DNA from: Escherichia phage vB_EcoM_EP57
Direction: 5' to 3' (one strand)
DNA length: 64,000 nt
Sequence record: OR544956
Below the pieces are notes generated by a model. The model did not search any database. It was not told the origin of the DNA and worked only from the letters and a program-made list of their open reading frames with translations. The translations under genes and the position numbers were made by a program. Below, in pieces: positions 31,284 to 59,551 of the stretch (position 1 is the first letter of the stretch; the number at the start of each line of letters is the position of its first letter).

Positions 31284-31291
31284 TTTACCCC

Positions 31292-32340: not shown

Positions 32341-32356
32341 TGCAATATTGATCTGA

Positions 32357-33406: not shown

Positions 33407-33480
33407 TGTTCCATATTCTGCAAAGCTGTGACCTGTAGATAAAATGTTACCGTCCCAATCAACTTTACGTCCTAGACGAT

Positions 33481-34400: not shown

Positions 34401-34578
34401 GGCTGGTTACTGTTCCCCGTGCATTCAGACGGTTTCTAGTTACCCCTGCACCACTCAACAACACTTTCAAAGAAGTTTTCTTTGTTATTCCAGCCTGATC
34501 TGTTACAAAGAAATCTGTATCAGACACAGAGGTTGTTTGTGTAAGATCAGAAATTTTGATCGTAGTTAAATCTGCCAT
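34384..34578 (-). CDS. Small tail or baseplate protein
   Basis: ATG with ggag ribosome-binding site. Confidence 0.3.
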   Translation of the reverse strand: MADLTTIKISDLTQTTSVSDTDFFVTDQAGITKKTSLKVLLSGAGVTRNRLNARGTVTSLGIRY

Positions 34579-35204
34579 TACTCTTCTACTCCTGTCATAG
34601 CTGTTATACCGAAATTATTGTTTGTAGTTAATGCATCACCTTTTTCGTTAACCATGATTCTTTCCACTGCTGACTCTGTAGACCATTCATTCCACCAAGT
34701 AGAGTAGGTATCACGTGGCAAACCAACAAAGTTGATAAAGCGATAAAGTCTATTCGAATTCTCAACAATACTGTAAGCTTCACAAATGATCGCTGCATTG
34801 TCTTCACCAGCTTCAGGGTAAATAAACTCTTCAGAAGGTTGAGTATTGAATATAGATGTTACTGTATCTGCTCCTACTGTGACCATAACTGTCATTGAGT
34901 AATAACGTTGATCCATGTCATAAGCAGATTTATAACTGTTTATTGTATCTATGTAAACGTTTTTGGCAATCTCTGCTAAAAATATTCTGTCTACAATATC
35001 TTTCTTTCTAGCAACACCAATAATCTCTTGTAAGTAAGGAACACCGAAGTTAGTATTTAAAAACCACTCCCCACGATACGTGTTCAGAGTTATCCCAAGA
35101 GTTTGTGCTGCAATTTCTGTTCTGGTTGTAGTGAGGACCAAATCCCCATCATCCATGATGAGGTCGTTGTTTGGTCCAAGTTTTAAGTCAAAAGGGATTC
35201 CCAT
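34578..35204 (-). CDS. Baseplate wedge protein (gpW/gp25-like, putative)
   Basis: Position next to the spike; LKLGPNNDLIMDDGDLVLT motif. Confidence 0.35.
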   Translation of the reverse strand: MGIPFDLKLGPNNDLIMDDGDLVLTTTRTEIAAQTLGITLNTYRGEWFLNTNFGVPYLQEIIGVARKKDIVDRIFLAEIAKNVYIDTINSYKSAYDMDQRYYSMTVMVTVGADTVTSIFNTQPSEEFIYPEAGEDNAAIICEAYSIVENSNRLYRFINFVGLPRDTYSTWWNEWSTESAVERIMVNEKGDALTTNNNFGITAMTGVEE

Positions 35205-35205
35205 G

Positions 35206-35940
35206 TTAGGCTCCTGTTGGTTTTAAGGACTCGGCACTTGAGTTACCGCTCTGAATGTTACGAACCGTGTGCGTGTGAGTATGGAATCCGATGCCATTAC
35301 CATCTGTCATCAAACCGTTCTGGTCTATTTTAAGACCATTGATATCTGCCACGCCGCCTTTGAAAGTTAAATTACCACCTTTTAGATCCAAAGTCCCTGT
35401 GCCATCTGTAATAGTAATACCAGAGGTGGTAATATCTATTTTCATCCCTTGACTATTCCATATTGAAATATTACCTGTAGGGTCGAAAGAAGCGTACGTG
35501 TTTTTGTTATTAGAAATAACTACCTTTTCAGAATCTACAGCTTCTGTTGAATCTGTTCCTGTAGCTATTTTGGGAATAAAACAAATAGGGTATAATCCAC
35601 AAGGCTGCATAAAAGTGGATGATGAAGAGGTTTCTCCACTAGTTTGCAGTGCATTAGAAGGATCTCTTTCAGAAAATATAACAGTTCCTAAATCGCCAGC
35701 TTTAATAGGGAATGAGATTCTTCCTGTCCCACCACCATTAACCATAAAAGGAACATCTTCAAAAGTAGGGTAATCTATTTCATCTTCGCTAGATCGTGTG
35801 TTTTTAACAATAGATTCTAAGGTGACAGTCTTAGCACCATAATTAACGCCAGTCACACGGACTGGCAGGGCTGTATGGACTTCTGCTAATTGTTCTGTCA
35901 TTAAGCCACGCATTGCTGTGACAAAATTTAATGCATCCAT
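35206..35940 (-). CDS. Baseplate central spike protein (gpV/gp5-like)
   Basis: C-terminal tip with HTHTHT motif of the kind seen in metal-binding spike apexes. Confidence 0.5.
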   Translation of the reverse strand: MDALNFVTAMRGLMTEQLAEVHTALPVRVTGVNYGAKTVTLESIVKNTRSSEDEIDYPTFEDVPFMVNGGGTGRISFPIKAGDLGTVIFSERDPSNALQTSGETSSSSTFMQPCGLYPICFIPKIATGTDSTEAVDSEKVVISNNKNTYASFDPTGNISIWNSQGMKIDITTSGITITDGTGTLDLKGGNLTFKGGVADINGLKIDQNGLMTDGNGIGFHTHTHTVRNIQSGNSSAESLKPTGA

Positions 35941-36950
35941 TATTTCTCCTTAGTCATTATTTCAGACACAGATACACACTCCACTTCAGTAACCCACTCT
36001 TTACCCTCTTTATCACCATTGTGAGAAACAGAAACAACTTTAAACGGACCATCATAATCTCGGCTTTTTAACCAGATTGTTTTTTCTGGTAATATTGCAC
36101 CATTCATTTGGCATTTGAATTTAACACCATCTGTAGGTTTCTTTGCCTTCTTAGAGGACTTGGTAACTTTTTTAGTAGGTTTTATATCGTTGTGGAATGG
36201 TTCTGGACTTCCTATCAGACCAGTTTCAGGGCTAATGTAGGCGCTACGTGCACTAGACATTTGTGAACGAGGAGTGACATAAACAGATCCATCTTGTATT
36301 GACACATTGTGATCAATACTTTTACAAATATGTTCTAGGTAATGTGAAGTGTTTCCACACATAGCTGTTGCTGAAGATAAGGTTTGATCATTATCTACGT
36401 GTATATTACCTTCTGTAGTTCCTAAATCCTTTACCAAATCTGTCACAACACGTTTGATTTTAGTTCCTTTTGGATAACTGCGGCTTGTTCTTGCTTCTGC
36501 AATGTTAATACCGCCATCCAAACAGTGTAAAGTGGTTTTCCTGTCTACCGAGTCAAAAGTATCACTAACCCACTGGATAGTTCCTTTGAAAATCATAACC
36601 AACTCTTCACCTTCGTATCCTACCGCTAAAGCAACAGCCAAGTTATTTCGGATACCACGGTTTATATAGTTAACAGTATCATCCGAAAGGTTATAAACTA
36701 CAATCTCTGCTTGGTTAGGATCTTTGTTATTATCTTTCTTAATACTGAAGGTTATTTGATGGTCTTGCAACAAATACAAATTAGAAGAGGATTTTTCTGT
36801 TGTTCCTAACTTGGTATCCAAATCTACTGTAGATTTAAATGCCGAGTTCTTAGTTCTCTTCTGTATTGTGTTTGTGGCAGAACCAATTAATAGTTTGTAT
36901 GCCCTGTTTAAATTAGGGGCAGGAGCTTTTGTATACTCTCTTTCTGCCAT
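35940..36950 (-). CDS. Baseplate hub or tail protein (putative)
   Basis: Position between the distal tail protein and the spike. Confidence 0.35.
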   Translation of the reverse strand: MAEREYTKAPAPNLNRAYKLLIGSATNTIQKRTKNSAFKSTVDLDTKLGTTEKSSSNLYLLQDHQITFSIKKDNNKDPNQAEIVVYNLSDDTVNYINRGIRNNLAVALAVGYEGEELVMIFKGTIQWVSDTFDSVDRKTTLHCLDGGINIAEARTSRSYPKGTKIKRVVTDLVKDLGTTEGNIHVDNDQTLSSATAMCGNTSHYLEHICKSIDHNVSIQDGSVYVTPRSQMSSARSAYISPETGLIGSPEPFHNDIKPTKKVTKSSKKAKKPTDGVKFKCQMNGAILPEKTIWLKSRDYDGPFKVVSVSHNGDKEGKEWVTEVECVSVSEIMTKEK

Positions 36951-36959
36951 ATTATCTCC

Positions 36960-37373
36960 TTACGCCTGATTAGGTTTGTTATCAATATAAACCAATACAA
37001 AACGTTTATCTCGACCTGTAGTTGTATACCCAGGACGACCATTAATCTTGACTGTATCTACTATATATAATTGACCATCTGGCACACTTTCAAGATATTT
37101 ATAAGGTTTAAGAAGATCTAAACCATTTGTAACTTTGAAACTTATACTCGGATCATCCCCAGATAATCCCATCTGACATTGCCAAGATTCGTCCCTAGTG
37201 TTCCACCTTAAACGAATGTCATAATCAACCCCATCCAATGTAACTGTATATGTTTGATCAGGGTACTCTTCAGTTTTCAGATACCATGCAAAATAAGTAG
37301 AATGGTCCTCCAGATAAACTGCACTGTAGCCTGTATTACTTGTAGACCTTGTTGTTTTAGAATAAGTTGTCAC
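36960..37373 (-). CDS. Tail or baseplate protein (hypothetical)
   Basis: ORF track. Confidence 0.3.
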   Translation of the reverse strand: MTTYSKTTRSTSNTGYSAVYLEDHSTYFAWYLKTEEYPDQTYTVTLDGVDYDIRLRWNTRDESWQCQMGLSGDDPSISFKVTNGLDLLKPYKYLESVPDGQLYIVDTVKINGRPGYTTTGRDKRFVLVYIDNKPNQA

Positions 37374-37375
37374 TA

Positions 37376-38077
37376 TTAACCTCCGTTGTTTGTTGGGGTA
37401 TTAGTAGCTTTGGCAGTTCTTACTGTAATATCTGACTTAGGACCATCCGAAGAAACTTGACCTTTCACATCACCACCAGTCGATTTATTTGGTGCTGTTT
37501 TTACAGCAATAGCATTAGTAGTGGCCTTAGAAACGAGACGGATTTGTTCGAACTCTAAATCAAATTGCATAGCAAATTCAGATTTATAATCATAAGAGTA
37601 GCCTTTGAGAATAACATTTTCAAAAGTTCTGTGTTCTGTCAAAAGAACTATTGGTTGTCTTGACTCAAATATTTGATCTAGATATTCTATTGCTTGAGAA
37701 ATCCTTGCACCATTTACACCTGCACTGTATAATTGATCTCGCATAAGCCGAATTGGTGTTTCGGTAATTATACCTGAAAGTTTAAATCTGTTGTTTTTTA
37801 TTTGAACGTGGTCACTTACATCCGATCCTGATTCTACTGGAAAACTTGTAACATCTGCCTCACGAGTTACACCTATTTCAGGGACTGAATCGAAAGTAAT
37901 TGCTTTAAAGTTTTGAATGTATTGATCACTTGAACTATTATAAACACTTGCTAAAATGCAGAAACCATTATCACCCTTTACAGTAGATGCCGAGGTATTT
38001 TTATTCTCGGTAGAGTTGATTTCCTGTTCTGCCTTATAGACGGCTCTCACCGACTGTTGTGGAGTCATTGCTGCCAT
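37376..38077 (-). CDS. Distal tail or baseplate protein (hypothetical)
   Basis: First gene after the tape-measure terminator/promoter. Confidence 0.35.
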   Translation of the reverse strand: MAAMTPQQSVRAVYKAEQEINSTENKNTSASTVKGDNGFCILASVYNSSSDQYIQNFKAITFDSVPEIGVTREADVTSFPVESGSDVSDHVQIKNNRFKLSGIITETPIRLMRDQLYSAGVNGARISQAIEYLDQIFESRQPIVLLTEHRTFENVILKGYSYDYKSEFAMQFDLEFEQIRLVSKATTNAIAVKTAPNKSTGGDVKGQVSSDGPKSDITVRTAKATNTPTNNGG

Positions 38078-38136
38078 GATAACCTCGTAGTAATGATAAT
38101 GCCAAAAGGAAGATGCAAGATCTTCCCATATTGATT

Positions 38137-38166
38137 ATTGTAACACATATAGAAACTTCGTGTCAA
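38137..38166 (-). promoter_or_regulatory. Sigma70-like promoter on the minus strand (TTGACA-18-TACAAT)
   Basis: Reverse complement of 38137-38166 reads TTGACAcgaagtttctatatgtgtTACAAT. Confidence 0.45.
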
Positions 38167-38174
38167 GGGAAACG

Positions 38175-38203
38175 AAAAAACCCCGCCGAAGCGAGGTATT
38201 TTA
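38175..38203 (-). terminator. Intrinsic terminator after the tape-measure gene (CCUCGC-UUCG-GCGGGG then UUUUUU)
   Basis: Hairpin with UUCG loop and six U on the minus strand. Confidence 0.55.
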
Positions 38204-40048
38204 TTAACCACCAGTGTTAGATTGTCCACTTAGAGTTGAAAGAGATAAACGTTGGAAAATGCTATTTCCGCTATTTTGAATTCTTGCATCAAGAATATTT
38301 CCAAACTCTGAAGAAGGGCTGATCGTAACTTTGATAAGATCACTTGGTATTGCTACCGTATTCTCAACAACAGGTTGATTACGAGCCAAACTTACATTAG
38401 GTGTATATGCCGACTGACGTAAATCTTCCAGAGGATTACCAAATCCAAAAGCACGTGTCCTTGTTTGTTCTCCTCTCCACATACGACCAATATCTTGTGT
38501 ATCAATACCTGTTAAATTGTACAACCAATCTGCTACAGGATTGCTGTCTCCACTTTGCGTTGCCTCGTATGCTTTTTGTGCTAAAGATTTATTAGGATCT
38601 GTGTCTTTAACGTTATCCAACCAAGAATCATCTTTAGGTAAGGCTTTCACAAAACCCTCTAAGAAGTGGTTCTGCATACCTTGACCTACAAGCTGAACTG
38701 TTGCAGCAAAACGAGTAAACTCTTTAGAAGCATCTATTTGTTCTTGAGTTAATGTTGCACCTGTTCTTTGAAGCATTTTCAATACTTCATTATACCCTTC
38801 GCCGTTTTTACTAAACATACGTTGGTAGTGCATAAGGTCATCACCAAGGTTTTCAAGAAGTCGCCCGATTTGAGCAGAGTTCATACCTCGACGCTCACCT
38901 TCATTAACAGTAGCCTGAATAAAAGCTAAAGGATCGTTCTGTAAAGGTTTAAGCTGTTCTGGATTCCATCCAAACAAGTTCATAATGTCATTTATGCCAT
39001 TATCACCGCCTTTCCACTTCCCTTCTTTCTCATTCCATTTTGAGGCTAAAACTGTATTACCAAGACGTTCACGAACGTCTTTAATATTATCTATTGACTT
39101 AATAATATTTGCAGAGTCTACACCGTTCTGTTCACCCCAAGCTGTCATCGCTAAAATAGAGTTGGCGTTTGTCTGAACGTTTTCAGCGCCACGACTTACA
39201 AGTTTAATTCTTTCGTTAGTATTCATCAACGTGTTACCAACTACAGAACCACCTGCAAACAGCCCAGCACCTATTAAAGAGGATGCAATCATGCGTGGAT
39301 TAAGACCTGCTGCACCTTCTTTTAATTGTCCATATCGACGATCACGATCACGTTTTTGTTGAGCTAATTCACGCTTACGGTTGCGTTCTATATCTCTAAG
39401 TTCACGATTTCGCATACGTATACGCATTTTAGCTTCTGCTTCTAGCTCTCTACGAATACGGCGACGACCGCGAACCTCGTCTTCTATTTCAGCATTCTTT
39501 TCACGATGAGATCTGCGTAAGGCATCTAACTGGTGAGCAAGAGCTTGGTTCATACGTTGAAGAGTTATTTCACCCTTTTTGTATTGCTCTACAGCTTTAC
39601 CCATAACGTCCCTAGCTTCTTGCATAGCCCCAGGACTGGCTTTACTAAATGCTCTTGCTCTGTAGTTAAAGTTCTGCAAACGAAGATTACCTAAATCTTC
39701 CCTACGTGCTGCTGCTTTAGCTTCGCGTTCAGCAGCTTTACGAGCTTTTTCTTCTTCTCTTCCTTGCGGGGTTTTAGGAGTTCTAGGTCTACCAGATCCG
39801 CCTACAGGAGCACCCGCTCCAGCGGGAGTAGGTGCTCGCATAGGTTTTTGACTTTGAGTTTGAGCTTTCTTAAGTTCACGCTCAATCTCTTTCATTTGTT
39901 GTCTAAACTTGGTCATGTTCATAGTGGGTTGCATTTTATTTGCAAACTTCTGAACACTCAACACGGCATCTTTTGCTTCCTTGAGACTGTTCTTGTCCAC
40001 CTTAAACGTAACCACGTTACTAATTTTGGAGGCGTTAATTTCTAACAA
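38204..40048 (-). CDS. Tail tape measure protein
   Basis: 614 aa, highly charged coiled-coil (RRELEAEAKMRIRMRNRELRDIERNRKRELAQQKRDRDRR), located after the tube and chaperone genes. Confidence 0.7.
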   Translation of the reverse strand: MLEINASKISNVVTFKVDKNSLKEAKDAVLSVQKFANKMQPTMNMTKFRQQMKEIERELKKAQTQSQKPMRAPTPAGAGAPVGGSGRPRTPKTPQGREEEKARKAAEREAKAAARREDLGNLRLQNFNYRARAFSKASPGAMQEARDVMGKAVEQYKKGEITLQRMNQALAHQLDALRRSHREKNAEIEDEVRGRRRIRRELEAEAKMRIRMRNRELRDIERNRKRELAQQKRDRDRRYGQLKEGAAGLNPRMIASSLIGAGLFAGGSVVGNTLMNTNERIKLVSRGAENVQTNANSILAMTAWGEQNGVDSANIIKSIDNIKDVRERLGNTVLASKWNEKEGKWKGGDNGINDIMNLFGWNPEQLKPLQNDPLAFIQATVNEGERRGMNSAQIGRLLENLGDDLMHYQRMFSKNGEGYNEVLKMLQRTGATLTQEQIDASKEFTRFAATVQLVGQGMQNHFLEGFVKALPKDDSWLDNVKDTDPNKSLAQKAYEATQSGDSNPVADWLYNLTGIDTQDIGRMWRGEQTRTRAFGFGNPLEDLRQSAYTPNVSLARNQPVVENTVAIPSDLIKVTISPSSEFGNILDARIQNSGNSIFQRLSLSTLSGQSNTGG

Positions 40049-40068
40049 AGTATGTTCCTCGTGTTGGA

Positions 40069-40404
40069 TTAAACAAGTTTCTTAAACAAATCTGACATTT
40101 TATTTGTCTGGTTTTGATGTTTTCTCTTTATTGAAGTGTCTTTAACATACATGGCTTCAACATACTCTTCGTATGTTAAATACTCATATAGTTTTAAAAG
40201 ATAATCTACACCGTAGTTATCCAATGTTTTCAGTGTTTCCGAGGTATCTTTAACGACTTTGCAAAGAATAACCTCATACCACTTCAAAGTAAGGGTTTTC
40301 GTTGCTGTGTCGATAGCATGTTCAATCGCAGGTGTTAATTTGCTGCTAAACTCGTCATCGCCTGAAGCTGTGTGAACAGTTTTCCGAAACCTCGTTTGAA
40401 AAAA
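40069..40404 (-). CDS. Tail assembly chaperone frameshift extension (GT-like product made by -1 frameshifting from 40335..40817)
   Basis: The -1 frame is open from 40428 to the stop at 40069; slippery site on minus-strand codons occupies plus 40398-40404. Confidence 0.5.
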   Translation of the reverse strand, partial: FFQTRFRKTVHTASGDDEFSSKLTPAIEHAIDTATKTLTLKWYEVILCKVVKDTSETLKTLDNYGVDYLLKLYEYLTYEEYVEAMYVKDTSIKRKHQNQTNKMSDLFKKLV

Positions 40405-40817
40405 GGGCCGTAGTTTACCTCCAGAACTTTAGCAGTAAGATCTAACACTAGTTCTGGGTGAGCCATAAATAATTCATCAAAATTTTCTGCAACGTTATAA
40501 CCGTCTTGAGTATAAACCTCATCTAAAATTTTACGCAAAAATACAGTTAAATTCTTTTCTTCCAAACCTGCAAAAAGTTGGATCAGTGCCATAGCAATAC
40601 GTGACTCAAGGTCTTCGTCTGCGGACATTGTTGCTGTGCTATACATAGTCATAGGAACAACCAGAACACTACCCAATTCTGGAATCCTGTCAAACACTTT
40701 AGATGGACTCCACTTCATAATACGGAAAGTAACAGATCTGTTTCCATCTAACGGAATCTCAACTACTTCTTCTGGTCGAGCATATTTTTGAATCGTGTTA
40801 TCTTGTTCTTGTGACAT
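40335..40817 (-). CDS. Tail assembly chaperone (G-like short product)
   Basis: Sits between tube and tape measure; carries the slippery heptamer T_TTT_TTC 21 codons before its stop. Confidence 0.55.
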   Translation of the reverse strand: MSQEQDNTIQKYARPEEVVEIPLDGNRSVTFRIMKWSPSKVFDRIPELGSVLVVPMTMYSTATMSADEDLESRIAMALIQLFAGLEEKNLTVFLRKILDEVYTQDGYNVAENFDELFMAHPELVLDLTAKVLEVNYGPFFKRGFGKLFTQLQAMTSLAAN

Positions 40818-40862
40818 ATTTTCCTCTCTAATGATAAAAAGGGCATTTCTGCCCTTTATTTA

Positions 40863-41111
40863 TTATTGAATTGTCAGAGCAGAGATTGAGTTAAGGGTGC
40901 TCAAACCTACACCAACTTCATTACGCAGAAGACTTGCATCTTTAAGACCAATAACCCATTGGTTCTCTGTAATCATTTCGCCAATAGTATCTTCAGGCTG
41001 ACTTTGAATCCATCCAATCGTGCTAATGTAATAGCCACGTGGGTCTTCCAAGTAAACACTGAACGCTACTTGACGAGTAGAATACATTGTTTGTGCATAT
41101 GTTGCAAGCAA
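40863..41111 (-). CDS. Tail tube protein, C-terminal segment (frame -1 relative to 41066..41314)
   Basis: Frame is open upstream to a TAA at about 41135; together with 41066..41314 gives about 150 aa. Confidence 0.45.
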   Translation of the reverse strand: MLATYAQTMYSTRQVAFSVYLEDPRGYYISTIGWIQSQPEDTIGEMITENQWVIGLKDASLLRNEVGVGLSTLNSISALTIQ

Positions 41112-41314
41112 GACATTGTGAGTGTTCCCAAACGGTTACGACTCAAAGCTAGTGAAACGTCGCCATCAGTCCCTGAATAAGGGTTGATAATATCGTTAGA
41201 TTTAGCAATAACGATTTTAGTATCAGCCGCAAAACCCCACGGTTCCCAACCACCTAATGAAAGGATAACTTGAGATGGGTCGTAGGCCATTACGCCAGTA
41301 AGCATTTTATCCAT
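41066..41314 (-). CDS. Tail tube protein, N-terminal segment
   Basis: Immediately downstream of the sheath gene. Confidence 0.45.
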   Translation of the reverse strand: MDKMLTGVMAYDPSQVILSLGGWEPWGFAADTKIVIAKSNDIINPYSGTDGDVSLALSRNRLGTLTMSCLQHMHKQCILLVK

Positions 41315-41338
41315 TATAGATCCTCTTTATTTTGATAA

Positions 41339-41355
41339 CGGGGGCTTAACCCCCG
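41339..41355 (-). other. Sheath-tube intergenic hairpin (CGGGGG-UUAAG-CCCCCG)
   Basis: Stable stem-loop between sheath stop and tube ribosome-binding site. Confidence 0.35.
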
Positions 41356-41360
41356 CCGTA

Positions 41361-42734
41361 TTAGTTTGCAGTACGGTTAGTCAGGACGTTGACCTGAACT
41401 TTAACGTAATGGAAGAAGCCAGCGTAAACATATTCAATCTTCATCCCATCGACCAGACGAGCATTGATTTGCGCATCAGTCATATCGGCACGAGAAGGAA
41501 TATAAACAATAGGTTTCAGATCGACACGCAAACCAGTCTCTTCAGAAGTAACAACTTCATTAGCGATGGAACCGTTGAGGATACCTACTTGGATTGGGTT
41601 AGCCAGAACAGCTTGTCGAATCAAAGCCAGACCGTTTGAAGTAGCACGAACACCACCACCCAGCATAGACTGTTGTTTAAACAGTGTAAACAGTGATTCT
41701 TCTGTGCGAGCTTTAAACCACAAAGCATGAACAACATAGTCAACAAAGAAACCGCTAACCATCAATCCATCACGATAGAACAGAGTTCCATGCTCTTTAC
41801 GATAGATGTTACCGTTCTGTTGAACAATATTGTTTTCCGAAGTCTGATCCAGTTTCTCGATCTCTACACCTACCAGTGTTTTACCGTGAAGAGTAGTTAA
41901 ACCAGGTTGACGAGAACAGATTGCACCAACAACTGCTGCTTCTGGGAATACAGAATCTGCATCGGTCATCCACAAAGCAAAGCAAGTGTTATTATAACCG
42001 AGGTCATTCAGTCGTTCCAGAACGTTATCTTCTGCTTTCGTTTTAATTCCAGGTTCAGAACTAGAGAAGAAGTAAACTTTATCATTCTCTTCTACCCATG
42101 CAGCCAAAGCTAGAACATCTTCTGTTTCATGGGAATCTGAAAGGGTCCAGAACCAGCTACTATCAATATCATGCAGAGCAGCGATATCTTCCGTAATAGC
42201 ATTAGCATAGACAGTTTCTTGAGTGAAACCTGTGCTGTCAATAGAACCAAACTTACCTTCTACTGGAGTGAAAGTCATTGCAGCGCCGTTGTTAGCTACT
42301 GTAAACAGTGGGCCATAAACAAGATCTGCATTGATCATTTCAGTCAGACCAACTACAATCTCTTGTGCAGTTGCAGTGTCATCAGCAATGAATTTAAATT
42401 CTTTTTTCTTGGTACCATTTTTGATGGTAATTGTGTAAGTTGCACTATCTTCTACGATTGGAGTTAGAGTAAAGTTTGTAACTTCACGCTTACCAACCAT
42501 GACTTGATCTGGTGGGAACAAACCGTTAAACAGTTTGACTGCCATAATATACGCTGGATCATTTAATCCATAACCTGCTTCCAAAAGTGCATCGGAAGAA
42601 GAGTAATATTGAATCGCTTCGCCAGTTACGTTCTGACCTGTAAGGATCAGGGGAATATCGAACTGGGTTTCACGAATTGATGTAGCACCATACAGTAAAG
42701 TTACGGTTGCTACCTTTTCACGAAAAGTTGCCAT
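41361..42734 (-). CDS. Tail sheath protein
   Basis: 457 aa, directly upstream of tube, chaperone and tape measure. Confidence 0.65.
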   Translation of the reverse strand: MATFREKVATVTLLYGATSIRETQFDIPLILTGQNVTGEAIQYYSSSDALLEAGYGLNDPAYIMAVKLFNGLFPPDQVMVGKREVTNFTLTPIVEDSATYTITIKNGTKKKEFKFIADDTATAQEIVVGLTEMINADLVYGPLFTVANNGAAMTFTPVEGKFGSIDSTGFTQETVYANAITEDIAALHDIDSSWFWTLSDSHETEDVLALAAWVEENDKVYFFSSSEPGIKTKAEDNVLERLNDLGYNNTCFALWMTDADSVFPEAAVVGAICSRQPGLTTLHGKTLVGVEIEKLDQTSENNIVQQNGNIYRKEHGTLFYRDGLMVSGFFVDYVVHALWFKARTEESLFTLFKQQSMLGGGVRATSNGLALIRQAVLANPIQVGILNGSIANEVVTSEETGLRVDLKPIVYIPSRADMTDAQINARLVDGMKIEYVYAGFFHYVKVQVNVLTNRTAN

Positions 42735-42768
42735 TTATGCTCCTGTTAGAAACTTAATTCCAATGAGT

Positions 42769-43407
42769 TTATTCGGTAGGGTTGTTAAATAATGATCCAT
42801 TTTGATTGACTGACGAGTATTCGCCTGGAACCAAAGTAATTGCATAAACCCTGTTTAGAATTAAATCTAAAGGGATAGGATCATTGTAACTATCTCTGAA
42901 TGAACGGATGTGCATGTTGATTGCTTCTATTGGTGTAGTAGCAATATCTTCAATACTCATACGAGTGTTGAACGTCATAACCATACGCGCTCTTAATTCA
43001 GTCTTATCTCCGTCTACAATTGTATTGGCTTGAGCTATATTGGAGGCTCCTAAAAAACCAAGACCTTTAGAATAGAGATGTTTGTATTTTAATTCCTCTG
43101 CACCACGGAGAGCAGCCAGAACATAGCTCATCAAAGTGGTAGGTCTTCCACGATAGGCTACAAGTTCAATCTCGTAGGTATTATCCATCTCGTAGGAATA
43201 CATATCATTTTGAATAGAGCTTCGGTAAGACCAACCTCCAGAATCGCTGGAAGTGATAATATGTAGTGCTAGGTAAGGAGTATCCGGTTTAATGAATGGC
43301 TTATCCATAACATAGACTGGCAACCCCACTAATTCTTGAAGGAAGCCACCTATATTTAAGTAGATGGCATTTTCGTATGCTTCTATTTGTTGGTAAATAT
43401 TAGCCAC
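42769..43407 (-). CDS. Virion structural protein (tail completion or neck, hypothetical)
   Basis: Position between head and tail modules. Confidence 0.3.
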   Translation of the reverse strand: MANIYQQIEAYENAIYLNIGGFLQELVGLPVYVMDKPFIKPDTPYLALHIITSSDSGGWSYRSSIQNDMYSYEMDNTYEIELVAYRGRPTTLMSYVLAALRGAEELKYKHLYSKGLGFLGASNIAQANTIVDGDKTELRARMVMTFNTRMSIEDIATTPIEAINMHIRSFRDSYNDPIPLDLILNRVYAITLVPGEYSSVNQNGSLFNNPTE

Positions 43408-43503
43408 TGTTCTGTTCCTTGTTGTAACCCCTTCATTTCTGTTTTAGTCCAGAAACTATATTGAGCCTTAGATCTGTAACCTTCAGGTAGTGCATTCAGT
43501 GTT

Positions 43504-43695
43504 TTACCAGATATCGGTTGTAAGCTTGCCTTCAATGGTAAATGGTTCATATTCTACACTACTTTCTAAGTTAGCAATAACTGAACCAACAGCCTCTTTG
43601 TAGACTCGTCTACGACCTTGGTATTCAGTTAGATCAAGGAGAGTAAATTGATCTAGTAACACTTGTATCTCCTTTTTAGTATACATCAAAAACAA
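43504..43695 (-). CDS. Hypothetical small protein
   Basis: ORF track. Confidence 0.25.
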   Translation of the reverse strand: MFLMYTKKEIQVLLDQFTLLDLTEYQGRRRVYKEAVGSVIANLESSVEYEPFTIEGKLTTDIW

Positions 43696-43707
43696 AGTTT
43701 ATGCAAG

Positions 43708-44196
43708 TTATTTTTTAGACTTGCTTTTTGTGATTTTTGTTTCGATTGCATTTATCATGTGTGCCGTATCTATTAAGATATGATTAGAATAGTTTCCTTT
43801 ATCTTGTCGTATCTTAATTGTCACAGGAGACAAAGGACGATAACGTTGCATTGCAATCGCTTGAGCTATTCCTTCTCTAGAGGCTCTCGCTATAGGCTCA
43901 AAAACAGCTAACCCGACATTATTCATTAAGTAATTTGCAAACACCTGCTTCATCTTTTTAGCGATATCGTTCTGTGAGATAACAGCACCATCTGTTATAA
44001 AAGGGCGAGCAGGTATGTTATTTGTTTCATTACCATATTGTTGAATAGCTGCTATTGCAGGAATAGTGAGATCTGATTCAGGATGCCTTTTGTTTGTTAA
44101 AAAACCAGCTTCGATTTGAACTTGTTCAAGGTCCATCATCTTTTTGATAATGGTTTCCCAATCTGTATCGTCACCTGGTAAGATCTCACTTTCCAT
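43708..44196 (-). CDS. Head-tail joining protein (hypothetical)
   Basis: Position. Confidence 0.3.
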   Translation of the reverse strand: MESEILPGDDTDWETIIKKMMDLEQVQIEAGFLTNKRHPESDLTIPAIAAIQQYGNETNNIPARPFITDGAVISQNDIAKKMKQVFANYLMNNVGLAVFEPIARASREGIAQAIAMQRYRPLSPVTIKIRQDKGNYSNHILIDTAHMINAIETKITKSKSKK

Positions 44197-44744
44197 TATT
44201 TGTCCCTACGATAAAAAGAAACAGGTCCGTAATTTCGCAAATAATTAACGTTGCGTGTATTCCGATCAACACTTGCAACATTACCAAGACCATTTACAGA
44301 GTTAGGATCGCTGTTTACTCGATCAATCTCACGAGCATCCACACCACCAATAAGAACTTTACTGGTTGCTCCTCGTCCTGCCGTGCACCCAGGGATCACC
44401 ATAAGACCATTTAAATAGTTATGATAGATATCTTCCCACGGAGATTTATAAGTGACTTGACCGTTGTTAAATTTAACTTCAACTTCGACTTCACCCATCT
44501 TTTCTCTGCGGGACATAGCCCCTCCTGTTTGAGTACTGTTGTTAAGAACATCGTTGTTCCATAAATACTCTAAAACAGAAATCAAGCTGTTCCACAATAC
44601 TGCACACTTATCCTTATCTTCATTCCCTATAATATCAATCCAAGTTTGGATGATCTGAATCAGCATTGCGTCTGGCAATACTTCTTGAGAAGGGTTATAA
44701 ACAAGGATTCGGATCAGTGGTGCCAACTCTACCGCATTCAGCAT
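44196..44744 (-). CDS. Head-tail adaptor or head completion protein (hypothetical)
   Basis: Position. Confidence 0.3.
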   Translation of the reverse strand: MLNAVELAPLIRILVYNPSQEVLPDAMLIQIIQTWIDIIGNEDKDKCAVLWNSLISVLEYLWNNDVLNNSTQTGGAMSRREKMGEVEVEVKFNNGQVTYKSPWEDIYHNYLNGLMVIPGCTAGRGATSKVLIGGVDAREIDRVNSDPNSVNGLGNVASVDRNTRNVNYLRNYGPVSFYRRDK

Positions 44745-44753
44745 AAGCCCACC

Positions 44754-45152
44754 TTATTTTTTACGAAGGGAACGTTTTTTAGCTGGAGTGTCTACCGCTT
44801 CTACTTTTAAAACTTCTTCTTTGATTTTTACAGGCGAATAGTCTTCATAACTTACAAGATAGTAACCCATGTGTTCTTCACTTGCAAAAGGATGCACAAG
44901 AATACCTGTTTCTTCTCTCAAACGCGTGAGGAAGTGAATGAAGTTTCCACCTAATGCAATACGACCATCTTTCAGATAGAAAGACATTGGTGGCGCAGAT
45001 ACTAATGTTTTATCAGCATCAATCAGTGGTGAAAGCGATTCGAAATCACGAATCATTTCGTGATAACTAAAGTAACGTTTCAATTCTGGGTTTGACATAT
45101 CAATCTCCTCATTGTAAACTCTTATTGTAAACAGAAAAGGCTCGCCCATCAC
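44754..45152 (-). CDS. Hypothetical structural protein
   Basis: Position downstream of the capsid gene. Confidence 0.3.
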   Translation of the reverse strand: MMGEPFLFTIRVYNEEIDMSNPELKRYFSYHEMIRDFESLSPLIDADKTLVSAPPMSFYLKDGRIALGGNFIHFLTRLREETGILVHPFASEEHMGYYLVSYEDYSPVKIKEEVLKVEAVDTPAKKRSLRKK

Positions 45153-53396: not shown

Positions 53397-53553
53397 GTTT
53401 TATTCAATAGATAGCAAAAAGCCTCCAATAAGGAGGCTAATAAATACTGTTAAGTTGAAATGCTTTATTATAATTGTGCGTTAAGGAGTCGCACCCCTCC
53501 ATCTTAGAAGGAACCAGGCAAGGTCTTCAAAGATACCGCTGGCAAGCGATATT

Positions 53554-53632
53554 TGGAGGCGGGAATTGGATTTGAACCAATGATCTCCAGCATATGAAAC
53601 TGGCGAGGACGACCAGACTCCTCTATCCCGCT
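53554..53632 (-). tRNA. tRNA with anticodon CAT (Met or Ile2)
   Basis: Manual fold: T-arm ATTGG-TTCAAAT-CCAAT, anticodon loop TTCATAT, CCA encoded; 1-72 is an A-C mismatch. Confidence 0.55.
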
Positions 53633-53638
53633 ATTATG

Positions 53639-53708
53639 TATCCCGTGCTGGATTCGAACCAGCATCACAATAAGCTGTGGAACTCTTATCCTGTAAGTCT
53701 AACGGGAA
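53639..53708 (-). tRNA. tRNA-like element, unassigned (anticodon arm cannot be folded; possibly degenerate)
   Basis: Good T-arm GCTGG-TTCGAAT-CCAGC and acceptor pairing, but only about 70 nt. Confidence 0.3.
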
Positions 53709-53710
53709 AC

Positions 53711-53784
53711 TGGTTGTTTCGACAAGAATCGAACTTGTGTCTCACGATTATCAGTCGTGGGTTCTACCATTGAACTACGAAACA
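53711..53784 (-). tRNA. tRNA-Ile (anticodon GAT)
   Basis: Perfect acceptor, T-arm and anticodon stem; loop CTGATAA; CCA encoded. Confidence 0.7.
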
Positions 53785-53790
53785 TTAAAT

Positions 53791-53867
53791 TGGTCGGAAT
53801 TGCAGGATTCGAACCTGCGACCCTACGCTCCCAAAGCGTATGCTCTACCAAACTGAGCTAAATTCCG
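53791..53867 (-). tRNA. tRNA-Pro (anticodon TGG)
   Basis: Perfect cloverleaf; anticodon loop TTTGGGA; CCA encoded. Confidence 0.7.
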
Positions 53868-53960
53868 TCATAACATTCTAAAGGTACACCGCAAAAGAAA
53901 GTGTTCGGCGGCTCCTCGTTTTTAACTTCACACTTGAGGTAGTGACTCACCTTTGTTATA

Positions 53961-54036
53961 TGGCTGGTCTGTCTGGATTTGAACCAAACCTACGACAGTC
54001 AAAGTGTCGTGTGCTACCGGACTACACTACAAACCA
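53961..54036 (-). tRNA. tRNA-Gln (anticodon TTG)
   Basis: Cloverleaf with anticodon loop CTTTGAC; CCA encoded. Confidence 0.65.
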
Positions 54037-54134
54037 ATAAATCATTTAATGAAGGGCAACCAGAAGAGGTGTGAGAGAAGGAGAAAACCATGAGTAAAAG
54101 AGAAAGTTTTCTGGCAACCCTTTATTAAATAATT

Positions 54135-54208
54135 TGGAGCGTTCTACGAGGATCGAACTCGTGCCGCCGACTTGGAAGGACGGAATGCTACCGCTACACC
54201 AAGAACGC
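54135..54208 (-). tRNA. tRNA-Gly (anticodon TCC)
   Basis: Acceptor GCGTTCT/AGAACGC, anticodon loop CTTCCAA; one mismatch in the anticodon stem. Confidence 0.55.
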
Positions 54209-54219
54209 CCTACATCTTT

Positions 54220-54249
54220 ACTATACTACATTTTACTATTGGTTGTCAA
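54220..54249 (-). promoter_or_regulatory. tRNA-operon promoter 1 (CTATTGACAA-18-TATAGT)
   Basis: Minus strand; -10 ends about 11 nt before the tRNA-Gly 5' end. Confidence 0.55.
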
Positions 54250-54524
54250 TAGTTTTATTGAGTGGGACAGTGACGAGTATCCCGTTGGGTGACTAGCCCT
54301 ACGTTCGGTAAGCTAACTTAAAATAATACAAAACCAAAGTCAAATATTATTCTTCGTTGCTGTCGATGGGAGAGCCGCTTCTCATTTTGCCCCATCCAAC
54401 CCTACTCCGGTCAAGTTTCGGGTAACTCTTTTTGTGTGATCAACACAATACTAAGAACACTGTCTTTCGAACAGACCTTGTGCACAGGATACGACGATCA
54501 ATCACAGTGCTCTTAATGTTGTGT

Positions 54525-54599
54525 TGGTGCTCCCACACTGAATCGAACAGAGATCCACGGATTACAAAACCGTTGTAATAGCCATTATACTATAGGAGC
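54525..54599 (-). tRNA. tRNA-Thr (anticodon TGT)
   Basis: Anticodon loop TTTGTAA; minor stem mismatches. Confidence 0.5.
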
Positions 54600-54605
54600 A
54601 AAGCT

Positions 54606-54682
54606 GGGACTCGGCAGGATTCGATACCTGCAATTCCAGAAGCCTCTTGGCGACTGGGGGTTTACCTTAACTCTACAAGTCC
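54606..54682 (-). tRNA. tRNA-like element, unassigned (T-arm near-identical to tRNA-Pro but with an 8-nt loop; no foldable anticodon arm)
   Basis: gcaggattcgatacctgc versus gcaggattcgaacctgc in tRNA-Pro. Confidence 0.3.
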
Positions 54683-54689
54683 ATAATTC

Positions 54690-54775
54690 TGGCGATGAGT
54701 ATAGGATTTGAACCTATATCGTTCTTTCGAACACGGATTAACAGTCCGCCGCTTAAACCATTCAGCCAACTCATC
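54690..54775 (-). tRNA. Class II (long variable arm) tRNA with anticodon GTT
   Basis: Perfect acceptor GATGAGT/ACTCATC, T-arm ATAGG-TTCAAAT-CCTAT, extra arm GTTC-GAAA-GAAC, anticodon loop CTGTTAA. Confidence 0.45.
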
Positions 54776-54781
54776 TTAATT

Positions 54782-54869
54782 TGGTGGTGAGTGATGGAGT
54801 TGAACCACCCGAATCGCAATGATAACAGATTTACAGTCTGCCCCGCTACCCCTACGGAATTAACTCACC
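54782..54869 (-). tRNA. tRNA-Tyr (anticodon GTA), class II
   Basis: Anticodon arm CAGA-CTGTAAA-TCTG as in E. coli tRNA-Tyr; 88 nt. Confidence 0.6.
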
Positions 54870-54947
54870 TAAATACTAATATTTAAATTCTTTTTAAAAT
54901 AGCCAGTGTTCACACCACTAACTATGTAAGCCATATTAAAAAGAACT

Positions 54948-55033
54948 TGGCGGTAGATGTAGGACTCGAACCTACACGCCGTTTCCGACTACAGTTTAGC
55001 AAACTGTCGTGGCTACCATTTCACCAATCTACC
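54948..55033 (-). tRNA. tRNA-Ser (anticodon GCT), class II
   Basis: Anticodon arm ACAGT-TTGCTAA-ACTGT; long variable arm. Confidence 0.65.
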
Positions 55034-55038
55034 TAATC

Positions 55039-55129
55039 TGGCGGAAGGAGGGAGAGTCGAACTCCCAAGGCTCTTTCAAGCTCGGCGGTTTTCAAGACCG
55101 TTTTCGTCGCCACGTCGATTTGCCCTTCC
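55039..55129 (-). tRNA. tRNA-Ser (anticodon TGA), class II
   Basis: Anticodon loop CTTGAAA; long variable arm; 91 nt. Confidence 0.55.
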
Positions 55130-55137
55130 ATACTTAT

Positions 55138-55167
55138 AATCTAACATAAAATAATGTTTGTTGTCAA
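55138..55167 (-). promoter_or_regulatory. tRNA-operon promoter 2 (CTATTGACAA-18-TAGATT)
   Basis: Minus strand; -10 ends about 9 nt before the tRNA-Ser(TGA) 5' end. Confidence 0.5.
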
Positions 55168-55363
55168 TAGTTTTTTAAAACATTTTACCATGAATGGTGA
55201 CTCCACCAACCCCCGTTCTCCACGAACGGTGCTCTTCGAGCATTTATGTCTTCTAATATAACCGTGGCCTTTGTTTATAATGTCTGACATACTTGCCTCA
55301 TTCTCTGCCACCATGATCAGTAGTGGGTTCAAATTACTTGAGCTAATTCATGTTAAAATGTTC

Positions 55364-55438
55364 TGGTGTCTTTACAAGGAATCGAACCTTGACTAAGAGT
55401 TTAGAAGACTCCTGTGCTATCCATTACACCATAAAGAC
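55364..55438 (-). tRNA. tRNA-Arg (anticodon TCT)
   Basis: Anticodon loop CTTCTAA; acceptor GTCTTTA/TAAAGAC. Confidence 0.6.
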
Positions 55439-55440
55439 GT

Positions 55441-55515
55441 TGGTGGCCCTGGCTGGTTTCGATCCAGCTACCTATCGGTTATGAGCCGACAGCTCTCCCA
55501 TTGAGCTACAGGGCC
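55441..55515 (-). tRNA. tRNA with anticodon CAT (Met or Ile2), second copy
   Basis: Acceptor GGCCCTG/CAGGGCC, D-stem GCTC/GAGC, anticodon loop CTCATAA. Confidence 0.6.
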
Positions 55516-55519
55516 ATAA

Positions 55520-55713
55520 ATGTGGTAACAGAGACGCTGACGATTGTAGAGAACCGCTACATTCTCTAAGACCAAGCCCAACTTTCAGCGTAAAAGTTCT
55601 TGAGCCGAGACTGTTCCTTTTCCTCTTTGGTAGCTAACCTCTGAAGAAGTAGTCTCTAACACTACCGCAGTGCAAGCCCCTCTTAACAAAAGTCAACGAC
55701 ACTGTTACCACAC
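55520..55713 (-). ncRNA. Candidate structured small RNA (about 190 nt) closed by a perfect 10-bp terminal stem, first transcript unit behind promoter 3
   Basis: Plus 55522-55531 gtggtaacag is the exact reverse complement of plus 55702-55711; lies between a promoter and the first tRNA; no ORF. Confidence 0.35.
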
Positions 55714-56915: not shown

Positions 56916-57332
56916 ATGAGATTTACAAGACAAGAGGTAGTTGTACTTGACGAAGCAATGACAATGATCGTCTTTTACTATGAGGATATCTTCTGTGCAG
57001 CATATCATTTAAATGATATTCAGATTGAATGGAAGCAGATAGCATTCCTGTTGGACAAGAGTAATCATTTGGATGGCTTTGAGTATTTGGAGTGGGATGG
57101 TGCAAAGGAAGTTAAAATTGTAGGGTTAAATCACGATCAGATTGTTGACATGCAATGTAAGTTGTGTCATTATCAGTTCTCAAACAATCCTGGCAACAAT
57201 TGTTCTGATTTTTGCCATGTGTGTGGTTCACGATGTTCTGGTAAGCTACTTTTGAAGACACAAGATGTGTCCTACAGCCGTGTTACGCTTACTGGCGACC
57301 ATACCCCAATCATGGAGTACGTAAAGAAATGA
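56916..57332 (+). CDS. Cys-rich hypothetical protein
   Basis: CKLCHY ... CHVCGSRC; taggaggctagaATG. Confidence 0.4.
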   Translation: MRFTRQEVVVLDEAMTMIVFYYEDIFCAAYHLNDIQIEWKQIAFLLDKSNHLDGFEYLEWDGAKEVKIVGLNHDQIVDMQCKLCHYQFSNNPGNNCSDFCHVCGSRCSGKLLLKTQDVSYSRVTLTGDHTPIMEYVKK

Positions 57333-58132
57333 GCAACTATCCAATTACAGGCGTAACCTATTCTTGTGTAGCAAAAGGTGGTTTATATACAGTAGTGGAA
57401 TTTCCAAAACCTGCCGGAATATCTAAAGTGTTTGATCCTGTGGTTATCTATGAAGATCTTAGAACAGGTCAACGTTACTGGAGATTTGTGAATGACTTTT
57501 TAGATCGTATGGAGGTAGTAAGTGGCGAAAACACCGAAGAAGTTATCAAAGCCAACGTTACTAAGAAACCGAAAAACGAGGTTCTCAAAGTAGCCAAATC
57601 AGTTCCTAAGAAAGATAAATTTGATACGGAGGCATTCGTCTTTGACACACCAATCGAGAAGATTGAAGAAGCGTTGCAACGTCTTGAGGAGCAGGAGGCA
57701 GATCCAATGGCTGAACCACTCGCTGAAGCAAAAAACATTGGTCGTTCCAATGAAACAACACCAGAAGAACAAGCTGAACTTGAAGCTTTTGCCAAATGGA
57801 CAAAACAGTTAAAGAATGGCTATTATAAAACAAAAGAAGAAGCTGAAAACCATGTTCCTTCCACACCAATGAAATGCCAGGATTATAAAGATTATCCTGA
57901 AAGGGTTGTGTTCCCTGGTTATGCACAATACAAACTGAACGGGTTACGTTCTATGATTAACATGAAAGGAGAGTGTTTATCAAAAGCTGGGGAAGTGTAC
58001 AACCTGCCACCTCATTGGAAAGGTATTCCAAACTTTATTAGTGAAGTTGTTGGTCATCCTCTTGATGGTGAAGTGTTTGCTGGGTTAGGTGTCCTTAGTC
58101 TGCAACAAATTAACAGTGCTTGCAGTAGTTGA
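57329..58132 (+). CDS. ATP-dependent DNA ligase-like protein, N-terminal and adenylation part; frame changes near 58090-58130
   Basis: Motif I-like YKLNGLR (KxDG-type with N in place of D) and motif III-like LDGEVFA. Confidence 0.45.
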   Translation: MSNYPITGVTYSCVAKGGLYTVVEFPKPAGISKVFDPVVIYEDLRTGQRYWRFVNDFLDRMEVVSGENTEEVIKANVTKKPKNEVLKVAKSVPKKDKFDTEAFVFDTPIEKIEEALQRLEEQEADPMAEPLAEAKNIGRSNETTPEEQAELEAFAKWTKQLKNGYYKTKEEAENHVPSTPMKCQDYKDYPERVVFPGYAQYKLNGLRSMINMKGECLSKAGEVYNLPPHWKGIPNFISEVVGHPLDGEVFAGLGVLSLQQINSACSS

Positions 58133-58592
58133 AGATTATGGTCTTGATGAGCTTATTTGTGTAGTTCATACAGAGTATATTGAAAACCAAGAACAGTTTG
58201 ATGCTTTCTATGAAAAAGCTTTACTTGAGAAAGCTGAAGGTGTAGTATATCGTAATGCTCACGGAGTTTACGAATTTGATAAACGTTCTTATGACGTTAT
58301 TAAACGTAAGCCTCGCCATACGCTTGAAGTTAAAGTAATAAATTCAAAAAGTGATAAAAATGGCGATGGAGTGTTGACAGGTGAGATGGAAAATGGTAAA
58401 GTAGTCGAATTCTTAATGCGTAAAGATGCTCATGAGACTATCAATTATCGTAAAGCAGAGAATGCTTCTACCTTGATTAATCAGTTCGTTGAAATAGAGT
58501 ATGAAGAATTTTCAGATGAAGGTATTCCAACAAAACCTGTTGGTGTTCGTATTCGAGAAATGATCCCAGGCACTTGGGAACCAGCAGAATAA
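58089..58592 (+). CDS. DNA ligase C-terminal part (motif IV/V and OB-fold region), +1 frame relative to 57329..58132
   Basis: EGVVYRN ... KPRHTLEVKV pattern typical of ligase motifs IV-VI. Confidence 0.45.
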   Translation: MSLVCNKLTVLAVVEDYGLDELICVVHTEYIENQEQFDAFYEKALLEKAEGVVYRNAHGVYEFDKRSYDVIKRKPRHTLEVKVINSKSDKNGDGVLTGEMENGKVVEFLMRKDAHETINYRKAENASTLINQFVEIEYEEFSDEGIPTKPVGVRIREMIPGTWEPAE

Positions 58593-58645
58593 GGAGGAAA
58601 AATGTTCTTAGCTTATCATTGTGCAAAATACCTGGAGGCATTTTT

Positions 58646-58828
58646 ATGATAATTTTAGCAACAATTCTTATGATGTTGATAGCAATTGCTATTATAATTC
58701 TGGCATCTTTTCCGGCGGATAAATGGTATTTCAATATTCCACGTATGCTTGTTTTCGGTTTCGCAGGGATTTACATGGGTGAGTCTGTAGTAAATATTAG
58801 CAACTTTCTAGAAAGCTATTTTAAATAA
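58646..58828 (+). CDS. Small two-TM membrane protein (holin-like candidate)
   Basis: Internal ATG at 58646 after ggaggca; MIILATILMMLIAIAIIILA and MLVFGFAGIYMG hydrophobic segments. Confidence 0.3.
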   Translation: MIILATILMMLIAIAIIILASFPADKWYFNIPRMLVFGFAGIYMGESVVNISNFLESYFK

Positions 58829-58837
58829 GGAGTTATA

Positions 58838-59551
58838 ATGATCGAGAATTTTTTTAAAGATATTAAATTCGATACTGAATTTTTCAAAAATGCAGCAAAG
58901 CACGTAATTGATTGGAATGCCAAAGCACGAGGTGGTGAACAACCTGAATTCACTCAAGAGCTATTTATGTCCCAAATCGGGTTCGTTCGTGAAGAGCTTA
59001 AAGAGTATGAAACAGCCGCGAAAGTAAACGATCATGTAGAACTCTTGGATGCAGCAGCGGATATTTTTGTAGTATCCAGTTATCTTACTTACATGTTCTT
59101 TGGTGAAGAACATACGATGAATTTCTTGGACTATGCTGTAGGCGATGTTTTTACTCCAACTGTGTATACTGATTTTGATGCTTTGGAACAAACATTTACA
59201 GAGCCAGTTCAAATGGCACTAATGGCTGCTGGTATTATGCGTATGTCTCGTGACACTCTAATCCGTTCAAAATATCCAGAAAAGAAAGTTATTAAAGAGG
59301 TATTGAAAAGTAATGATTCCAAGTATCCAACTAAACAACAGTTGCTGAAAACTTGGAAAACTTCGGATATCGATTCAGCCATTGCACAAGAATGCGCTGC
59401 AATTGAAGAACGAAATGCCAATCGTCCAGAAGGGGCATACACTGGTGTTCATGCTGTTTATAATGAAAAACAGAAAGTGTATGTGTTCTTTGATGATAAA
59501 GGTAAGATCATGAAACCATCGACCTTTGTCAAACCTAATATTAATAAGTAA
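58838..59551 (+). CDS. Hypothetical protein (possibly MazG-like nucleotide pyrophosphohydrolase)
   Basis: EELKEYETAAKVNDHVELLDAAADIFVV resembles the EExxE...D motif of all-alpha NTP pyrophosphatases. Confidence 0.3.
   Translation: MIENFFKDIKFDTEFFKNAAKHVIDWNAKARGGEQPEFTQELFMSQIGFVREELKEYETAAKVNDHVELLDAAADIFVVSSYLTYMFFGEEHTMNFLDYAVGDVFTPTVYTDFDALEQTFTEPVQMALMAAGIMRMSRDTLIRSKYPEKKVIKEVLKSNDSKYPTKQQLLKTWKTSDIDSAIAQECAAIEERNANRPEGAYTGVHAVYNEKQKVYVFFDDKGKIMKPSTFVKPNINK

Follow-up and report, generated by a model that had tools for sequence, protein, structure and literature searches.

The ligase genes closest to the locus described here are those of Phapecoctavirus phages (Stephanstirmvirinae, phAPEC8-like), whose genomes are approximately 99% identical to this region of the window (the window being the whole stretch of 64,000 nt that was analysed), with Escherichia phages nieznany and tuntematon as the best matches. 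In these relatives, the ligase is encoded by a single gene of 1,116 nt and is 371 aa long (nieznany, YP_009986138.1; tuntematon, YP_009986564.1; phAPEC8). Its downstream neighbours, which are also those found in the window, are a small ORF, a nucleotide pyrophosphohydrolase gene and an RdgC-like gene. [quoted passage not shown] AsfvLIG is catalytically active and carries N153 in place of D570 of human LIG1 (PMC6344480). Among its mutants, every combination that included N153D showed less activity than the wild type, and removal of the NTD abolished activity (PMC6344480).

AsfvLIG and the phage family share approximately 21% sequence identity, the phage proteins being about 40-50 residues shorter. 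A single sequence of the intact family matched AsfvLIG with E=1e-3 and the family profile matched it with E=2e-23, profile positions 37-362 being aligned to AsfvLIG chain residues 74-411. The structural model of an orthologue (P0001; pLDDT 93.6) shows strands at residues 8-46 and a helix at residues 60-77. Superposed on full-length, closed, DNA-bound AsfvLIG, this model gives a TMq of 0.76-0.78 over approximately 410 columns (0.77-0.78 with 6imn), as against approximately 0.58-0.61 with the core-only ligases Lig E (6gdr) and T4 (6dt1). This better match to the full-length AsfvLIG fold indicates that the N-terminal domain is common to both. From the profile alignment and the model, the intact phage family can be considered homologous to AsfvLIG, and it is predicted to have the same working mode. 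The intact 371-aa enzyme has three domains (DNA-binding at the N-terminus, then adenylation and OB), and would seal nicks via a lysyl-AMP formed on the lysine of KLNGLR. The minimal ligases (Chlorella virus PBCV-1, Lig E 4d05/6gdr) and the T4 and T7 ligases are more distant (profile E=3e-17 to 1e-11; fold TMq 0.4-0.6). They have motifs I, III, IIIa, IV and V in the same order as the phage family, but they carry Asp in motif I, and their N-terminal domain is either absent or alpha-helical.

The initial annotation of this locus had pointed out that motif I reads KLNGLR, with Asn in place of Asp, and had counted this residue among features that would normally inactivate a ligase. The reading of the motif is correct, since these residues are indeed encoded at the positions given in Table 1, but the interpretation fails in view of the active ASFV ligase with N153 and of the composition of the family. 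Indeed, 112 of 121 homologues (with identities down to approximately 47%) carry Asn at this place in motif I and 9 carry Asp, the K, G and R of the motif being invariant, and the intact ligase of nieznany also reads KLNGLR. Asn is therefore the family norm in motif I and is no lesion. The corresponding motif of AsfvLIG is KRNGVR, so that Asn is found in both; among the four residues presented as unique in the AsfvLIG paper, Asn is the one compared here. As a separate observation, the N-terminal DNA-binding domain and Asn153 of AsfvLIG, which were published as unique, are common to a large family of phage ligases, and this sharing of supposedly unique features may be of interest to ligase specialists.

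In the window, a DNA ligase-like gene had been described as divided between two overlapping plus-strand ORFs with a +1 frame difference. Both the gene family and the coordinates agree with the present analysis (Table 1). According to the ORF list, ORF1 (267 aa) and ORF2 (167 aa) overlap over 44 nt (58089-58132), the frame of ORF2 being +1 relative to that of ORF1. In profile searches, (i) both ORFs match phrog_114 'ATP-dependent DNA ligase', each with E of approximately 5e-27, (ii) residues 25-74 of ORF2 match PF01068 in its C-terminal part (E=1.9e-6), and (iii) ORF2 gives a weak match to the OB-domain profile PF14743. The parts of the ligase that are retained are 99.2-99.5% identical at the DNA level to the Phapecoctavirus genes, with 99.4-99.5% for the flanks against the ligase DNA of nieznany and tuntematon. 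Alignment to 4d05 and 6imj recovered motifs I, III, IV and V and a VI-like motif; motif IIIa is missing. The assignment of ORF1 to the ligases holds for its residues 132-264, whereas its residues 1-131 come from two unrelated genes.

Table 1. Features of the ligase locus, in window coordinates (strand +, plus;., not stranded)
Feature	Coordinates	Strand	Remarks
ORF1	57329-58132	+	267 aa; stop codon at 58130-58132
Remnant like tuntematon gp275 (phrog_12584), codons 1-75	57329..57553	+	Gives ORF1 its ATG
4-bp deletion junction	57554..57555	.	tuntematon 103729-103732; from BLAST alignment gaps, consistent with the spans of the relatives
Remnant like gp274, 'putative transposase-like protein' (phrog_6208), codons 14-68	57557..57721	+	
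4,044-bp deletion junction	57721..57722	.	Missing: tuntematon 103900-107943
Ligase residues 47-180	57722..58122	+	99.5% DNA identity to the nieznany/tuntematon ligase
AKNIGRSNETT, N-terminal DNA-binding domain (AsfvLIG-like), C-terminal half	57728-57760	+	
Motif I, KLNGLR	57932-57949	+	Aligned to KLDGIR of 4d05 and KRNGVR of 6imj
Motif III, LDGEVF	58061-58078	+	
ORF2	58089-58592	+	167 aa
107-bp deletion junction	58122..58123	.	Missing: tuntematon 108345-108451; placement ambiguous by 1 nt
Ligase residues 217-371 and stop codon	58122..58592	+	+1 frame
Motif IV, EGVVYR	58236-58253	+	+1 frame
Motif V, VIKRKP	58296-58313	+	+1 frame
OB domain with motif VI-like PTKPVGVRIRE	58527-58559	+	+1 frame

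ORF1 is a chimera of gp275 (codons 1-75), gp274 (codons 14-68) and the ligase (codons 47-180). Indeed, its residues 1-76 match phrog_12584 (E=6.9e-42) and its residues 87-134 match phrog_6208 (E=3.4e-17) in the PHROGs profile search, neither of which is a ligase family; a stretch of 75 residues is identical to gp275 and one of 55 residues (residues 77-131) is identical to gp274. A deletion of 4 bp joins codon 75 of gp275 to the frame of gp274. A second deletion, of 4,044 bp, which was absent from the initial annotation, takes the rest of gp274, approximately 13 genes (including those of an HNH endonuclease and a phosphoesterase) and codons 1-46 of the ligase, in which the residues L8, W20, G34 and K39 are invariant. 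At this second junction (57721/57722), codon 47 of the ligase is fused in frame with codon 68 of gp274, and there is no microhomology. Both deletions keep the frame open, for which the chance is approximately 1 in 9; this is compatible with an accident and is not evidence for one. The relatives compared have the 4,044-bp block, and none of the matching phage records bridges 57721/57722. Likewise, none of eight further contigs (Logan, ENA, NCBI, metagenome) bridges this junction; they break at 57722, and similarity to the window is lost upstream of it. An exact look-up of the chimeric ORF1 product among 153 billion gene positions gave no match.

The split between the two ORFs corresponds to a real change of frame, as had been described, but its cause is the loss of a block of 107 bp rather than a small slip. 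This block codes for ligase residues 181-216 (WKKHNANTPLLNYYVYDIPVPGLPFEKRVDALAALK), among which K182, T187, L190 and Y195 are invariant in the family. It contains the whole of motif IIIa (LNYYVYDIP, approximately residues 190-198 of the intact protein), which was identified by aligning the protein with Lig E 4d05 and AsfvLIG. Since 107 equals 3 x 35 + 2, the downstream half of the gene falls in the +1 frame, and ORF2 is composed of 11 out-of-frame codons (58089-58121) followed by ligase residues 217-371. Across this junction, all of the phage records that hold both of its sides (22 of 22) have 218 bp, as against 111 bp in the window, and none of 64 matching records crosses 58122/58123 in one piece. 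The block is also present in all of eight extra contigs (six contigs with the RdgC neighbour and two metagenome contigs); a ninth contig, L016, ends short of the junction and was left out of the eight. The possibility that the 107 bp are an intron-like insert in the relatives was dismissed, since their ligase genes read the block in frame and it codes for invariant residues and motif IIIa. A slip of a single base or a homopolymer error was rejected as well, because the alignment shows that 107 bp are absent, and not one.

Judged from its sequence, the window gene as written would be unable to give an active ligase, because half of the N-terminal domain and motif IIIa are lost and the adenylation domain is split. 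In brief, all four strands of the N-terminal domain (codons 1-46) are gone and its helix part is left, motif III is present and motif IIIa is deleted, the adenylation domain is divided between motifs III and IV, and the ligase motifs are spread over two ORFs instead of lying in one continuous frame. The earlier statement that the gene is inactivated is thus correct insofar as no working ligase would be possible, but Asn is not among the causes.

These lesions are not restricted to the ligase locus. The window (positions 1-64000) corresponds to positions 39576-114412 of tuntematon (74,837 bp) and differs from it by 33 deletions of 2-4,044 bp, amounting to 10,843 bp in total, against which stand just two insertions (3 nt and 1 nt). 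The two deletions of 4,044 and 107 bp in the ligase are part of this set of 33. Twenty-one of the deletions were compared with relatives beyond tuntematon, and the other 12, including the 7-bp deletion in the primase/helicase gene, with tuntematon alone; at all of the 21 junctions so compared, no relative has the deletion in common with the window. In window 18000-30000, each of the 15 relatives listed matches in 9-10 pieces across approximately 18 kb. In window 30000-45000, which holds the structural module, the 12 relatives listed all span exactly 15,390 bp, as against 15,001 bp in the window, and the shortfall of 389 bp is the sum of the eight deletions located there. Natural indel polymorphism among isolates was rejected as an explanation for the junctions compared, since the relatives agree to the base in length and the window is 389 bp shorter in the structural module. 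A few of the shorter gaps, of 6 and 12 bp, which keep the frame and have 3-4 nt of microhomology, could be natural polymorphisms.

The genes hit out of frame include those of the primase/helicase (7 bp), the baseplate wedge (110 bp), the tail protein gp142 (25, 17 and 19 bp), a virion structural protein (28 bp) and the minor head protein (152 and 2 bp). Genes of the tape-measure region are also broken by deletions, and tail-fibre and tail-spike genes are removed whole (1,247 and 2,227 bp). With essential replication and virion genes destroyed in this way, a genome of exactly this sequence would be incapable of forming plaques.

The lengths of the deletions have a heavy-tailed distribution and are divisible by 3 in 11 of the 33 cases, which is the chance rate, the remaining 22 being out of frame. 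Microhomology at the junctions averages 0.85 nt, and size-matched deletions placed at random give 0.72 +/- 0.17 nt; a microhomology-mediated mechanism was rejected, since the junction homology equals the random expectation. None of the 33 deletions is of 1 nt, which sets them apart from ordinary base-calling error; their signature does not point specifically to any known pipeline error. The point differences from tuntematon number 363, of which 281 are synonymous, 47 are nonsynonymous and 35 are unassigned, with no gain of a stop codon, and they are the mark of full purifying selection on the genome. The features by which a pseudogene is recognised (nonsense or an excess of nonsynonymous changes, 1-nt deletions, lesions shared throughout a lineage) were not found, the ratio being 281:47 without stops and the lesions being absent from the relatives examined. 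With no decay in the point differences, the deletions appear to have been superimposed on a genome that was intact and functional. Of the two possibilities offered in the initial annotation, sequence error or a degenerating gene, a faulty record explains the data best, and decay is unsupported by these counts.

The same arrangement was also searched for elsewhere. Six contigs that carry an RdgC neighbour identical to that of the window all encode an intact ligase of 371 aa. Exact 30-mers of both junctions gave no match in viral_contigs, where a control 30-mer taken from intact ligase sequence was likewise unmatched, so that these negatives carry no information. The junction scan of genome_contigs, run without a control, gave no match and is weak evidence, and that of metagenome_contigs, a small sample in which the control matched three contigs, gave none, which is an informative negative. 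No match was found among E. coli genomes and plasmids, which showed no sign of a host-borne copy.

Taken together, the random-looking breakpoints, the essential genes that are hit and the purifying selection on the remaining sequence indicate that the loss of sequence is most likely non-biological. Blocks of sequence were very probably lost through a fault in assembly, consensus building or processing, or through deliberate alteration of the record, and we infer an artefact on this basis. The loss of the 4,044-bp block would remove codons 1-46 of the ligase and the upstream genes from the record, and the loss of the 107-bp block would remove residues 181-216, with motif IIIa, and shift the frame; in the actual phage, the ligase gene is most likely whole. 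Another possibility is that the deletions are real and that the window belongs to a non-viable, heavily deleted Phapecoctavirus genome, propagated by a helper at high multiplicity or kept as a dead copy in a replicon. The deletions are consistent throughout the given sequence, their sizes are heavy-tailed, and the sequence itself holds no proof of an artefact, all of which would fit such a genome. It is nonetheless unlikely, because 33 independent deletions would have accumulated without a single nonsense change and with a synonymous to nonsynonymous ratio of approximately 6 to 1, without 1-nt deletions and with almost no insertions. In E. coli phages, microhomology is expected at the breakpoints of deletions, as in deletion mutants of T7 and T4; the breakpoints in the window lack this mark of slippage or illegitimate recombination. 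The unrecorded chimeric ORF1 product and the lack of a match among E. coli genomes or plasmids also weigh against a real defective genome, as does the nature of the Phapecoctavirus group, from which only virulent phages are known. In its more specific form, that of a natural, grossly deleted genome without a functional ligase, maintained by a helper or by passive carriage and generated by a deletion process independent of microhomology, this reading is quite improbable.

A further reading is a loss confined to the ligase in a viable phage. In its favour, phage ligases can be dispensable where the host is ligase-proficient, and the relatives differ from one another in the genes of the early region in which the ligase lies. 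In that case, the gene would have become a pseudogene and the NAD-dependent LigA of the host would substitute for it, as in T7 gene 1.3 mutants. However, the same kind of deletion breaks the primase/helicase, baseplate wedge, tail, tape-measure-region and head genes, the ligase sequence is strongly conserved, and the relatives examined, including the six contigs with the identical RdgC neighbour, all have the intact 371-aa ligase, so that such a loss is very doubtful. The 44-nt overlap of the ORFs and their +1 frame difference are, in themselves, what one wrongly read base or programmed +1 frameshifting would produce in an otherwise complete ligase gene. This model, implicit in the initial annotation, is refuted by the alignment, in which 107 bp are absent instead of one, and no reading frame restores residues 181-216 or 1-46. 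The preferred explanation thus remains the non-biological loss of sequence blocks. The split of the ligase is best classed as no real biological feature, and the gene is the already known Phapecoctavirus ligase in a damaged copy.

For the ligase itself, little is at stake: Asn is a trait of the family and, in motif I, already known biology, and the other apparent defects are missing sequence. For the record as a whole, split genes, fusion ORFs and missing genes anywhere in the 64-kb window should be regarded as suspect until the source reads are examined.

In summary, compared with the Phapecoctavirus ligases, the window copy has lost codons 1-46 as well as residues 181-216, it carries a frame shift, and remnants of two unrelated genes are joined to its 5' end; the approximately 4 kb of genes that lie upstream of the ligase in Phapecoctavirus genomes are missing. 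The likeness to AsfvLIG belongs to the intact orthologues and not to this broken copy. In T7, deletion mutants of gene 1.3 have lost the phage ligase and live on that of the host, and these deletions form between short direct repeats in phages that are viable. The window differs from them on both counts, its junctions being without microhomology and its deletions reaching essential genes as well as the ligase.

Compared with the Phapecoctavirus tuntematon, which was used as the reference and is about 99% identical, the window (1-64000) shows 33 deletions, which range in length from 2 to 4,044 bp and sum to 10.8 kb. Their breakpoints look random, none of the 33 is a single-base deletion, and many of them are located in essential genes. 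Among the 21 of the 33 deletions that were checked beyond tuntematon, none was found in common with other relatives. Any further split or fused gene reported from the window probably reflects this same deletion phenomenon.

Upstream of the ligase, 63 bp are absent at 57184-57186 and 135 bp at 57251-57252, and these two losses have joined the remnants of the tuntematon genes gp278, gp277 and gp276 into a single ORF of 138 aa. Furthermore, in the phage tRNA cluster (about 53500-55600), the stretch separating tRNA-Asn from tRNA-Ser lacks a 51-bp block at 54925-54926; as this block is intergenic by tuntematon coordinates, the tRNA genes themselves appear to be untouched.

In some relatives, an additional small gene (about 140 bp, 64 aa) separates the ligase from the following ORF. 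In contrast to the deletions confined to the window, this difference looks like true presence/absence variation between isolates. In the comparison of window positions 58592-58840 with four public contigs of relatives (L008, L009, L012 and L015), this gene was absent 3' of the ligase from the window, as it is from tuntematon and from nieznany, a second close relative.

Coordinates of the ligase family sequences, the upstream ORF and the deletion junctions
Feature	Location	Strand	Remark
Ligase family, window	57722-58592		
Ligase family, P0001			Orthologue
Ligase family, contig L001	2363-3478		
138-aa ORF	56916-57332	+	Adjoins ligase ORF upstream; deletion product
Deletion junctions, window	75, 4378, 8318, 13519, 18526, 20245, 22476, 24996, 25754, 26585, 27912, 29146, 29549, 31908, 32394, 33614, 34401, 38604, 41109, 43405, 43529, 52056, 54925, 56503, 56823, 57184, 57251, 57554, 57721, 58121, 59538, 62032, 63004		

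Among the phage-collection records matching this E. coli Phapecoctavirus, five are labelled 'Campylobacter phage' (e.g. B15, MG065650.1, in which the matched stretch is 63 nt, identical throughout), and others are labelled 'Acinetobacter', 'Pseudomonas' or 'Klebsiella' phage. The host labels of these records may be unreliable.

At E<=1e-5, the Phapecoctavirus ligase family comprises at least 420 proteins; it is homologous over its full length to the African swine fever virus (ASFV) ligase, AsfvLIG. In the paper describing AsfvLIG (PMC6344480), its N-terminal DNA-binding domain and its motif I Asn were both termed unique, and a 2020 review likewise termed the N-terminal domain unique and drew the ASFV ligase as an isolated node (PMC7470946). 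Both features are also present in the Phapecoctavirus ligase family, and the solved AsfvLIG structure 6imn aligns with the structure predicted for the intact orthologue P0001 with a TMq of 0.77-0.78.
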